This document shows, piece by piece, positions 9,908 through 10,735 of a stretch of 64,000 nt of DNA (position 1 is the stretch's first letter; every line of letters begins with the position of its first letter). This DNA comes from Escherichia phage vB_EcoM-RPN187. The stretch is taken from the sequence record OL770074.2. The stretch is one strand, 5' to 3'. Under the pieces are notes generated by a model. That model searched no databases, was not told the origin of the DNA, and saw nothing but the letters and a program-made list of their open reading frames with translations. The translations under genes were made by a program, and so were the position numbers.

Positions 9908-9983
9908 TGGTCGAGGCAGTAGGGGTCGAACCTACGACCTAGGACTTAGAAGGTCCTTGCTCTTCCTTCTGAGCTATGCCTCG
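9908..9983 (-). tRNA. tRNA-Arg (anticodon UCU)
   Basis: Hand-folded: acceptor CGAGGCA/UGCCUCG, D-arm GCUC..GAGC, anticodon loop CUUCUAA, T-arm GUAGG-UUCGACC-CCUAC, CCA encoded. Confidence 0.85.
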
Positions 9984-9987
9984 GATT

Positions 9988-10062
9988 TGGCGGACATGCA
10001 TGGATTCGAACCATGGACCAATTGATTAACAGTCAACTGCTCTACCACTGAGCTACACATCC
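9988..10062 (-). tRNA. tRNA-Asn (anticodon GUU)
   Basis: Hand-folded: acceptor GGAUGUG/CAUGUCC (two G-U pairs), D-arm UAGCUCAGUGGUAGAGC, anticodon loop CUGUUAA, T-loop UUCGAAU, CCA encoded. Confidence 0.75.
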
Positions 10063-10066
10063 AAAT

Positions 10067-10153
10067 TGGTTGGGAGTGATGGAGTCGAACCACCTGAGTC
10101 GCAATGACAATGGATTTACAGTCCACACCGCTACCTCTACGGGATAACTCCCC
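10067..10153 (-). tRNA. tRNA-Tyr (anticodon GUA), long variable arm
   Basis: 87 nt; anticodon stem GUGGA/UCCAU with loop CUGUAAA; T-arm GGUGG-UUCGACU-CCAUC; CCA encoded; 1:72 is a G-A mismatch so the 5' end is approximate. Confidence 0.7.
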
Positions 10154-10162
10154 AAATTAATT

Positions 10163-10237
10163 TGGTGGCCCTGGGTGGAATTGAACCACCATCTGGCGAT
10201 TATGAGTCGCTTGCTTGAACCTTCCAGCTACAGGGCC
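10163..10237 (-). tRNA. tRNA with anticodon CAU (elongator Met or lysidine-type Ile2)
   Basis: Acceptor GGCCCUG/CAGGGCC, anticodon loop CUCAUAA, T-arm GGUGG-UUCAAUU-CCACC, CCA encoded. Occupies the slot of T4 tRNA-Ile in the conserved order. Confidence 0.75.
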
Positions 10238-10238
10238 T

Positions 10239-10314
10239 TGGTGCTGATTGACGGAATCGAACCACCGACCTTCTCATTACAAGTGAGTTGCTCTACCTAC
10301 TGAACTAAATCAGC
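10239..10314 (-). tRNA. tRNA-Thr (anticodon UGU)
   Basis: Acceptor GCUGAUU/AAUCAGC perfect, anticodon loop CUUGUAA, T-loop UUCGAUU, CCA encoded. Confidence 0.8.
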
Positions 10315-10319
10315 AAAAC

Positions 10320-10409
10320 TGGCGGAGGCGATAGGATTTGAACCTATGAGTCGCCGGAGCGACTGCCGGTTTTCAAGACCGGTGCATTAAACCACTCTGC
10401 CACGCCTCC
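10320..10409 (-). tRNA. tRNA-Ser (anticodon UGA), long variable arm
   Basis: 90 nt; acceptor GGAGGCG/CGCCUCC, anticodon stem CCGGU/ACCGG with loop CUUGAAA, T-loop UUCAAAU, CCA encoded. Confidence 0.85.
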
Positions 10410-10411
10410 AG

Positions 10412-10485
10412 TCTCCATACAAGGATTTGAACCTTGGACCTCCTGATCCCAAATCAGGCGCTCTACCAAACTGAGCTACACGGAG
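10412..10485 (-). tRNA. tRNA-Pro (anticodon UGG), CCA not encoded
   Basis: Acceptor CUCCGUG/UAUGGAG, D-arm UAGCUCAGUUUGGUAGAGC, anticodon loop UUUGGGA, T-arm CAAGG-UUCAAAU-CCUUG. Confidence 0.8.
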
Positions 10486-10495
10486 TAAATTAAAT

Positions 10496-10569
10496 TGGAG
10501 CGGATAATGAGAATCGAACTCACATCATCAGATTGGAAGTCTGAGGTAATGCCATTATACGATATCCGC
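10496..10569 (-). tRNA. tRNA-Gly (anticodon UCC)
   Basis: Acceptor GCGGAUA/UAUCCGC, anticodon stem UCAGA/UCUGA with loop CUUCCAA, T-loop UUCGAUU, CCA encoded. Confidence 0.85.
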
Positions 10570-10574
10570 AAATT

Positions 10575-10661
10575 TGGTGCGAGAAGTGGGACTCGAACCC
10601 ACAAGGAAATCATTCCGCAGCATTTTAAGTGCTGTGCCTTTACCAATTTGACCATTCTCGC
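10575..10661 (-). tRNA. tRNA-Leu (anticodon UAA), long variable arm
   Basis: 87 nt; acceptor GCGAGAA/UUCUCGC, anticodon stem CAGCA/UGCUG with loop CUUAAAA, T-arm GUGGG-UUCGAGU-CCCAC, CCA encoded. Confidence 0.85.
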
Positions 10662-10662
10662 G

Positions 10663-10735
10663 CTGGGAATAAAGGACTCGAACCTTTGCATCCTGGAATC
10701 AAAATCCAGTGCCTTACCAACTTGGCTAATTCCCA
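10663..10735 (-). tRNA. tRNA-Gln (anticodon UUG), CCA not encoded
   Basis: Acceptor UGGGAAU/AUUCCCA, anticodon stem CUGGA/UCCAG with loop UUUUGAU, T-arm AAAGG-UUCGAGU-CCUUU. Confidence 0.8.

Follow-up and report, generated by a model that had tools for sequence, protein, structure and literature searches.

Transfer RNA (tRNA) clusters of T-even phages have been studied since the 1970s, and in the classical view the T4 tRNAs supplement codons that are rare in the host. In T4 (NC_000866), the cluster runs Gln-Leu-Gly-Pro-Ser-Thr-Ile, followed by the 666-bp homing endonuclease gene segB and then by Arg-rnaD-rnaC. The segB-less tRNA region of T2L and the homing of SegB were described in 2008 (PMC2330249). 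When T4 SegB cuts T2L DNA, with a preferred cut in tRNA-Asn, about 1250 bp with the tRNA genes for Met(CAU), Tyr, Asn, and Arg are excluded (PMC2330249, Brok-Volchanskaya et al.), and homing turns the T2L-type Met(CAU)-Tyr-Asn-Arg block into the T4 type (PMC2330249). Here we analyze the tRNA cluster of Escherichia phage vB_EcoM-RPN187 (RPN187 below; sequence record OL770074.2) in a stretch of 64,000 nucleotides (nt), referred to as the window. We conclude with high confidence that it is the tRNA region of a T-even coliphage in the segB-less T2L/RB27-type arrangement, which would supplement the tRNAs for A/U-ending codons and whose tRNA-Tyr would have a second role as a spare copy. The ten-tRNA cluster is real but ordinary, and its arrangement is already known.

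According to ARAGORN, the window contains exactly ten tRNA genes, which are all located on the minus strand between positions 9908 and 10735 (Table 1). Their order in the direction of transcription is Gln(UUG)-Leu(UAA)-Gly(UCC)-Pro(UGG)-Ser(UGA)-Thr(UGU)-CAU-Tyr(GUA)-Asn(GUU)-Arg(UCU). The ten genes, their identities, their order and their outer coordinates had been proposed in an earlier sequence-only reading of this DNA, and both ARAGORN and Rfam agree with them. All ten lie above the gathering score of Rfam family RF00005 (29 bits), nine of them at 59–73 bits (E values from 1e-10 to 6e-14). The covariance model accepts both tRNA-Tyr (30.9 bits) and tRNA-Asn (72.6 bits), the two calls that the reading had singled out as open to refutation. 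Each of the ten tRNAs has a seven-pair acceptor stem, a discriminator base and, in the cmscan alignments, a 7-nt anticodon loop with U33. The acceptor pairs are standard in 69 of 70 positions, the sole exception being G1·A72 of tRNA-Tyr. Permissive Rfam matches to Plastid-ycf2, sX4, YrlA, tRNA-Sec and isrK lie far below their gathering scores and were discarded as echoes of overlapping or opposite-strand tRNAs, and open reading frames (ORFs) listed within the cluster, such as those at 10476-10736 (minus strand) and 10495-10743 (plus strand), were set aside as mechanical readings of tRNA sequence.

The genes are tightly packed. With the encoded CCA counted within the gene, the intergenic gaps in transcription order are 0, 5, 10, 1, 5, 1, 9, 4, and 4 nt; of the 1–10 nt given for the spacers earlier, the upper bound stands, whereas the lower bound has to be reduced to 0 for the Gln-Leu gap. 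CCA is encoded in eight of the ten genes. Reading the 3′ ends directly bears out the previous count of two genes without it and identifies them as tRNA-Gln, whose G73-C74 abuts G1 of tRNA-Leu, and tRNA-Pro, which ends in A73-C74-U and is then followed by tRNA-Ser.

Table 1 Features of the RPN187 tRNA region. Positions refer to the window; identity elements are those found on comparison with the bacterial sets in PMC9976931 Table 1.
Feature	Position	Strand	Basis	Remarks	Identity elements
tRNA-Gln (UUG)	10662..10735	-	ARAGORN; Rfam 67.4 bits	CCA not encoded	full identity set: U1-A72, G2-C71, G3-C70, G73, G10, U35, G36, A37, U38
tRNA-Leu (UAA)	10575..10661	-	ARAGORN; Rfam 59.3 bits	long variable arm; CCA encoded	A73, long arm
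tRNA-Gly (UCC)	10496..10569	-	ARAGORN; Rfam 63.3 bits	CCA encoded	U73, G1-C72, C2-G71, G3-C70, C35, C36
tRNA-Pro (UGG)	10411..10485	-	ARAGORN; Rfam 66.8 bits	CCA not encoded	C1-G72, A73, G35-G37
tRNA-Ser (UGA)	10320..10409	-	ARAGORN; Rfam 62.6 bits	long variable arm; CCA encoded	G73, G2-C71, G4-C69, C11-G24, G30-C40, long arm
tRNA-Thr (UGU)	10239..10314	-	ARAGORN; Rfam 65.4 bits	CCA encoded	G1-C72, C2-G71, G4-C69, G35, U36
CAU-anticodon tRNA	10163..10237	-	ARAGORN; Rfam 59.9 bits	CCA encoded	see text
tRNA-Tyr (GUA)	10067..10153	-	ARAGORN; Rfam 30.9 bits	long variable arm; CCA encoded	see text
tRNA-Asn (GUU)	9988..10062	-	ARAGORN; Rfam 72.6 bits (highest of ten)	CCA encoded	G73, G34, U35, U36, A37
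27-bp match to preferred T2L SegB recognition site	9986..10012	-	register from T2	3′ part of tRNA-Asn	
tRNA-Arg (UCU)	9908..9983	-	ARAGORN; Rfam 66.9 bits	CCA encoded	A73, G2-C71, A20, C35, U36
T4 rnaD (species 2 small stable RNA) homologue	9792..9906	-	alignment with annotated T4 rnaD	85/119 columns identical	
T4 rnaC (species 1 small stable RNA) homologue	9647..9785	-	alignment with T4	137/139 columns identical	
G+C-rich hairpin and six T	9568..9595	-	folds at -15.1 kcal/mol	GCCCCTTCCGAAAGGTTGGGGCTTTTTT	

The cluster contains the tRNA specificities of T4 in the same relative order. A check against NC_000866 upholds the T4-like order read earlier, the eight shared specificities being collinear. 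The tRNA bodies of Leu, Pro, and Ser are identical in T4 and RPN187, those of Gly and Thr differ by 1 and 5 nt, and for Gln all differences are compensated and confined to the anticodon stem. The CCA-less Gln-Leu and Pro-Ser junctions are also identical. In T4, tRNA-Ser (which has UAA there) and tRNA-Ile lack an encoded CCA, whereas both genes encode it in RPN187. Moreover, the T4 tRNA-Ile(CAU), 63.5% identical to the CAU gene of RPN187, and the T4 tRNA-Arg, identical in 30 of 76 aligned columns, are different alleles.

The segB-less T-even references used for comparison were T2L, RB1/RB3, and RB27 (EMBL AJ880101, AJ884577/8; KM607000). The annotation of RB27 lists the same ten tRNAs in identical order and, after them, rnaD and rnaC; its cluster is located between the trna.2-4 and e.x genes and lacks segB, as in RPN187. 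T2 has Gln-Leu-Gly-Pro-Ser, an ORF and CAU-Tyr-Asn-Arg, the ORF standing in place of the tRNA-Thr that RPN187 possesses. The CAU genes of T2 and RB27 are identical to that of RPN187 and their tRNA-Arg genes differ from it by 2 nt, while tRNA-Tyr differs by 2 nt in RB27 and by 3 nt in T2. Their tRNA-Asn is a different allele, and its anticodon and T stems differ from those of RPN187 by compensatory changes. T6 has Gln-Leu-Gly-Thr-CAU-Tyr adjoining segB. In the T6 record (AP018814, 1-422), the ORF beside tRNA-Tyr, at the place of segB according to PMC13096335, bears the label “serine recombinase”, which is probably a mis-annotation.

By these comparisons, the T4 block and the RPN187 block are alternative alleles of a homing locus. 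The sequence-only reading had described Tyr and Asn as inserted before Arg. Both genes are indeed present there in addition to the T4 set, but “inserted” presupposes a direction of change, and the corresponding slot of T4 contains segB. Because the variable block is the stretch replaced by SegB homing, an insertion of Tyr and Asn is not established and their loss on entry of segB is at least as likely; the T4 arrangement may be the derived one. In RPN187, a tblastn search with T4 SegB gave no match in 9500-11000, and its sole weak match in the window, at 32623-32829, belongs to another seg-like ORF. This ORF (32521-33156, plus strand, 211 amino acids) is located among structural genes and resembles a free-standing homing endonuclease gene: its GIY-YIG match to T4 SegB is weak (38% over 69 amino acids), and it further matches PHROG 314 and, below the Pfam curated cut-offs, the I-TevI DNA-binding domain and the NUMOD3 motif. 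A copy of segB elsewhere in the window was therefore rejected, since this different seg-like ORF is the only GIY-YIG match.

The tRNA-Asn gene contains a match to the preferred SegB recognition site of T2L. The register of the 27-bp site, whose start is GGTTCGAATCC of tRNA-Asn, was rebuilt from the T2 database sequence. In this register, tRNA-Asn and tRNA-Ser of T2 differ at positions 6, 16, 18, 26, and 27, and the register is validated because the five differences match those in PMC2330249 exactly. The RPN187 site keeps all five preference nucleotides (G6, A16, G18, A26, and A27) together with CCAA. It differs from T2 at four of the 27 positions (12, 13, 14, and 17), which lie within the middle part called degenerate in PMC2330249. 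Judging by this match, tRNA-Asn of RPN187 is likely a SegB target. The allele also differs in its anticodon arm, which reads U36AAUCA41 in RPN187 and UAAGCG in T2/RB27; the former context is the optimal cleavage site of PARIS AriB (PMC12409363).

All ten anticodons read codons that the phage, with a G+C content of 38%, uses more often than E. coli does, as judged from the uncleaned set of window ORFs and 42 annotated E. coli K-12 genes. The excess over the E. coli sample is largest for AGA (6.7-fold) and AUA (5.5-fold), followed by ACA (3.9-fold), UCA (3.3-fold), UUA (2.7-fold), AAU (2.5-fold), GGA (2.4-fold), UAU (2.1-fold), CAA (1.6-fold), and CCA (1.5-fold). AUA occurs 13.3 times per 1000 codons in the window ORFs (12.3 with spurious ORFs removed) versus 2.4 in the E. 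coli sample, and AGA reaches 7.6 per 1000 with spurious ORFs removed. The frequency of AUG is 0.73 times that of the E. coli sample. Since the ten anticodons read phage-enriched codons, these enrichments fit the supplement view of the T4 tRNAs.

Nine of the ten tRNAs possess the bacterial identity elements expected of them, completely or for the most part (Table 1), and their sequences indicate tRNAs that are built for charging by the host synthetases. From the genes, order, anatomy, homology, identity elements, and codon bias, which are directly observed, we infer a model of co-transcription, processing, modification, charging, and benefit. By analogy with T4, the ten tRNAs together with rnaD and rnaC would be co-transcribed head to tail as multi-tRNA precursors, and the hairpin with its T run would end the unit. 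The 0–10 nt spacers and the CCA-less Gln and Pro genes at T4-identical junctions are the sequence basis for precursor processing. Host RNase P would make the 5′ ends, and host 3′ exonucleases and the CCA-adding enzyme would complete the 3′ ends of Gln and Pro. Host enzymes would also modify the bases; in the CAU tRNA, TilS would form lysidine and so yield an AUA-reading tRNA-Ile2. Host synthetases would charge the ten tRNAs. The main effect would be a larger tRNA supply for the A/U-ending codons AGA, AUA, ACA, UCA, UUA, GGA, AAU, and UAU. In addition, tRNA-Tyr, and possibly Asn and Thr, would stand in as a spare for a host tRNA destroyed by anti-phage nucleases.

The CAU-anticodon tRNA is very probably tRNA-Ile2, which would read AUA after lysidine modification. 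The TilS determinants, the similarity to ileX and the excess of AUA support the sequence-only reading, which had put it forward as a candidate lysidine-type tRNA. Across 5,424 E. coli genomes, its closest counterpart carries the annotation tRNA-Ile (81.6% identity; the copy examined is prophage-borne). The identity is 75% to K-12 ileX, 57% to the elongator metT, and 49% to the initiator metZ, and positions 28-42 are identical to ileX. Particularly, the tRNA carries C4-G69 and C5-G68, which are positive determinants of TilS, whereas the pairs U4-A69 and A5-U68 of tRNA-Met are negative determinants (PMC2500205). The latter two pairs are the acceptor determinants of MetRS (PMC9976931 Table 1). 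The CAU tRNA has A27·C43, G30-C40, and A44 and is devoid of the determinants C27-G43, C30-G40, and G44 of TmcA, which forms N4-acetylcytidine (ac4C) in tRNA-Met (set from PMC2500205). Of the IleRS determinants, it possesses A73, C4-G69, U12-A23, C29-G41, A37, and A38 (set from PMC9976931 Table 1). It shares with E. coli tRNA-Ile2 (ileX/ileY) the CAU anticodon, the G1G2C3C4C5 acceptor strand and A73, and differs from it in the D loop (G14, G13·A22), in the variable loop (4 nt in RPN187) and in the T stem.

An open 1-72 pair is favored by GlnRS and disfavored by bacterial TyrRS, and E. coli su+III tRNA-Tyr mutants in which the 1-81 pair is broken are reportedly mischarged with glutamine. The tRNA-Tyr of RPN187 has A73, G34, U35, and the long variable arm, with G1-C72 replaced by G1·A72. 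Compared with the common allele, present in Shfl2 and many other phages, it shows exactly two substitutions. One changes C72 to A at window position 10071 and yields the G1·A72 mismatch; the other changes G to A at window position 10095 (raw position 59), where the variable arm meets the T stem. Both are private to RPN187, AV112, and AV113, and among 496 matching records only AV112 and AV113 are 100% identical to the RPN187 gene. G1-C72 is intact in tRNA-Tyr of T2, T6, RB27, and Shfl2. For bacterial TyrRS, this pair has an identity function (PMC9976931), and weak 1-72 pairs favor GlnRS, as stated in general terms with regard to amber suppressors derived from tRNA-Asn and tRNA-Ser (PMC9976931). 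The two substitutions may reflect early decay, neutral drift or adaptation. With RF00005, the tRNA-Tyr of RB27 scores 30.2 bits and those of T2 and T6 fall below the threshold, and the T6 tRNA-Tyr has been found experimentally to be expressed and active (PMC13096335). Because these genes score as low or lower and that of T6 is active, the low Rfam score is a trait of the phage tRNA-Tyr family and does not mark a false call.

The proposed second role of tRNA-Tyr has experimental backing from T6 and T5 and is extended to RPN187 by analogy. Septu and the PtuAB of retron-Eco7 cleave host tRNA-Tyr, and the tRNA-Tyr of T6 and T5 counters them largely by dosage (PMC13096335, PMC11555353). In the case of retron-Eco7, PtuAB depletes host tRNA-Tyr and the T5 tRNA-Tyr rescues (PMC11555353); the T6 tRNA-Tyr counters Septu when amplified, and deletion of the T6 tRNA region raises sensitivity (PMC13096335). 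Furthermore, T4, which has no tRNA-Tyr, is sensitive to Septu, whereas T2, which has one, is resistant (PMC13096335). The PARIS nuclease AriB cleaves the host tRNAs for Lys(UUU), Thr(UGU), and Asn(GUU) (PMC12409363). The two genes that T4 lacks, Tyr and Asn, therefore match host tRNAs attacked by defense nucleases, as Septu and retron-Eco7 target Tyr and PARIS targets Asn. The T6 tRNA-Tyr is identical to that of RPN187 at 83 of 87 nt, and the two share the variable arm with its GUCA cleavage site. In T6, segB beside tRNA-Tyr drives the amplification, whereas the RPN187 cluster contains no segB and its tRNA-Tyr has G1·A72.

Several observations weigh against the interpretation of the cluster as a codon supplement with a spare tRNA-Tyr. 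The IleRS core determinants G16, U20, and U21 are not clearly recognizable in the D loop of the CAU tRNA (GGAAGGUUCA), and the tRNA has G14 instead of the near-universal A14. Its D arm also contains the G13·A22 mismatch, and T2 and RB27 have this sequence as well. The lysidine at position 34 is a prediction, the modification being invisible in DNA. Regarding codon usage, the E. coli reference comprises only 14,748 codons and the window ORF set was picked mechanically, and late and early genes differ little in their use of cognate codons, the difference having the expected direction for AUA, ACA, UCA, and CCA. No promoter was found by a search for sigma-70-like matches in 9000-12500, whose number is at chance level (13 versus 10.1 +/- 2.8). 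With the loss of G1-C72, the activity of the RPN187 tRNA-Tyr is uncertain. Septu also cuts phage tRNA-Tyr, at C48 of the variable arm (PMC13096335), and the RPN187 gene keeps the cut site GUCA at raw positions 46-49. Similarly, tRNA-Asn keeps the AriB-type site U36AAUCA41, and because of this site and the absence of a tRNA-Lys from the phage the cluster would be unable to bypass PARIS by itself.

The identity of the CAU tRNA bears on the codon model, as an elongator tRNA-Met would add AUG-reading rather than AUA-reading capacity. ARAGORN calls the gene tRNA-Met, most database records carry this label while a few give tRNA-Ile, the T2L gene was called tRNA-Met in PMC2330249, and MetRS recognizes a CAU anticodon that is unmodified and combined with A73 (PMC9976931 Table 1). 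We nevertheless consider this assignment highly unlikely, because C4-G69 and C5-G68, positive for TilS, occupy the places of the MetRS pairs U4-A69 and A5-U68, and because the gene is 57% identical to metT but 75–81% identical to E. coli tRNA-Ile(CAU) and matches ileX throughout positions 28-42. AUG is under-used in the window ORFs while AUA is about fivefold over-used, and some phage records do carry the tRNA-Ile label. The initiator tRNA-fMet, for which only the CAU anticodon speaks, can be practically dismissed: position 1-72 is a paired G1-C72 instead of the initiator mismatch, the anticodon stem (A·C, G-C at 28-42, C-G at 29-41, G-C at 30-40, and A-U at 31-39) has no three consecutive G-C pairs, and the identity to metZ is only 49%. 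The assignment as tRNA-Ile2 is therefore retained.

For tRNA-Tyr and tRNA-Asn, the alternatives concern function. If tRNA-Tyr were decaying in the RPN187 lineage, the cluster would effectively be a nine-tRNA set. The private nature of the two substitutions among the 496 records, the marginal Rfam score and the position of the only unpaired acceptor pair of the ten tRNAs at a TyrRS identity site (PMC9976931) agree with decay, but the score of the gene (30.9 bits) is not below that of the intact RB27 allele (30.2 bits), the intact T2 and T6 alleles being below the threshold. The acceptor stem keeps its other six pairs, A73, G34, U35, and the long variable arm are likewise retained, and some tRNAs tolerate one terminal mismatch, so we regard decay as rather unlikely. 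That the substitutions are adaptive and change the handling by a PtuAB-type nuclease or a synthetase appears quite improbable. A further reading holds that the main selected role of Tyr, Asn, and perhaps Thr is anti-defense, by replacing host tRNAs that PtuAB-type (Septu, retron-Eco7) and AriB (PARIS) nucleases cut, rather than codon supply. Tyr (PMC13096335, PMC11555353) and Asn, with Thr(UGU), the latter two cleaved by PARIS (PMC12409363), are exactly the reported host targets; the contrast between T2 and T4 in Septu sensitivity (PMC13096335) points the same way, and UAU and AAU are enriched more modestly than AUA and AGA. On the other hand, with its GUCA site retained the Tyr gene could act at best by dosage, and its 1-72 pair is damaged. 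The Asn allele presents the best AriB site, unlike the UAAGCG of T2/RB27 (PMC12409363), and the phage has no tRNA-Lys. Tyr and Asn codons make up about 10% in the phage versus about 6% in the E. coli sample, so that demand alone could explain both genes. We consider a mainly anti-defense role possible but doubtful, and favor codon supply as the main effect with a second role for tRNA-Tyr.

The placement of the cluster matches the T-even region, with trna.2-4, ipI, and 57B upstream and rnaD-rnaC-e.x downstream on one strand. The rnaD homologue begins 1 nt past tRNA-Arg, and its ends are conserved whereas its middle part has diverged from T4. The rnaC homologue ends in a tRNA-like T arm (CCGGGTTCGAATCCCGG). 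Rfam contains no family for rnaC or rnaD. The hairpin at 9568-9595 is probably the intrinsic terminator of the RNA-gene transcription unit; it was found by separate folding, a simple terminator scan not having listed it. A MotA-box-like sequence (TTGCTTGA) 20 nt upstream of tRNA-Gln was rejected as a promoter, since the start would fall inside the tRNA. The genes upstream on the same strand, identified by T4 alignment, PHROG, and Pfam, are homologues of trna.2, trna.3, and trna.4, internal head proteins (ipI), 57B (Pfam Acb1), 57A, and gene 1. The gene 57B homologue (12426-12881, minus strand), located just upstream in the same direction, matches Pfam Acb1, an anti-CBASS phosphodiesterase, with E = 7e-59.

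The 1.6 kb around the cluster are 99.8% identical to Escherichia phages AV112 and AV113. The cluster region is 92–96% identical to several hundred T-even phages, 415 records covering at least 80% of the 1.6 kb, and the CAU-Tyr-Asn block is covered to at least 80% in at least 382 phage records in GenBank. For the major capsid gene, the identity is 95–99% to about 150 records, among them ST0 and AlbertHofmann, and 87–89% to typical Tequatrovirus, so that RPN187 has the capsid placement of the AV112/ST0 group, unlike Tequatrovirus. By these identities, the phage is a T-even phage whose capsid gene groups with Mosigvirus-type phages, AV112 and AV113 being the nearest. A recent transfer of the tRNA region between genera was considered in view of its 92–95% identity to Tequatrovirus and rejected, as the capsid gene already reaches 87–89% and tRNAs are conserved anyway.

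The discovery value of the cluster is small, the arrangement having been in print for T2L since 2008 and being part of the annotation of hundreds of genomes. The analysis bears on the database labels, since most of them give tRNA-Met for the CAU gene whereas the determinants point to an AUA-reading tRNA-Ile2. Moreover, the cluster is likely a target of SegB homing in mixed infection with T4-type phages, and tRNA-Tyr, perhaps with Asn and Thr, would bear on the plating of therapeutic T4-like phages on hosts with tRNA-cleaving defenses. Separately, 131–138 kb phages of a different family, namely phage 206, EduardKellenberger, and nomine (MG022440, MZ501061, and MN850649), have tRNA genes that share about 95% identity with the CAU and Tyr genes, which suggests that tRNA genes are exchanged between phage families.

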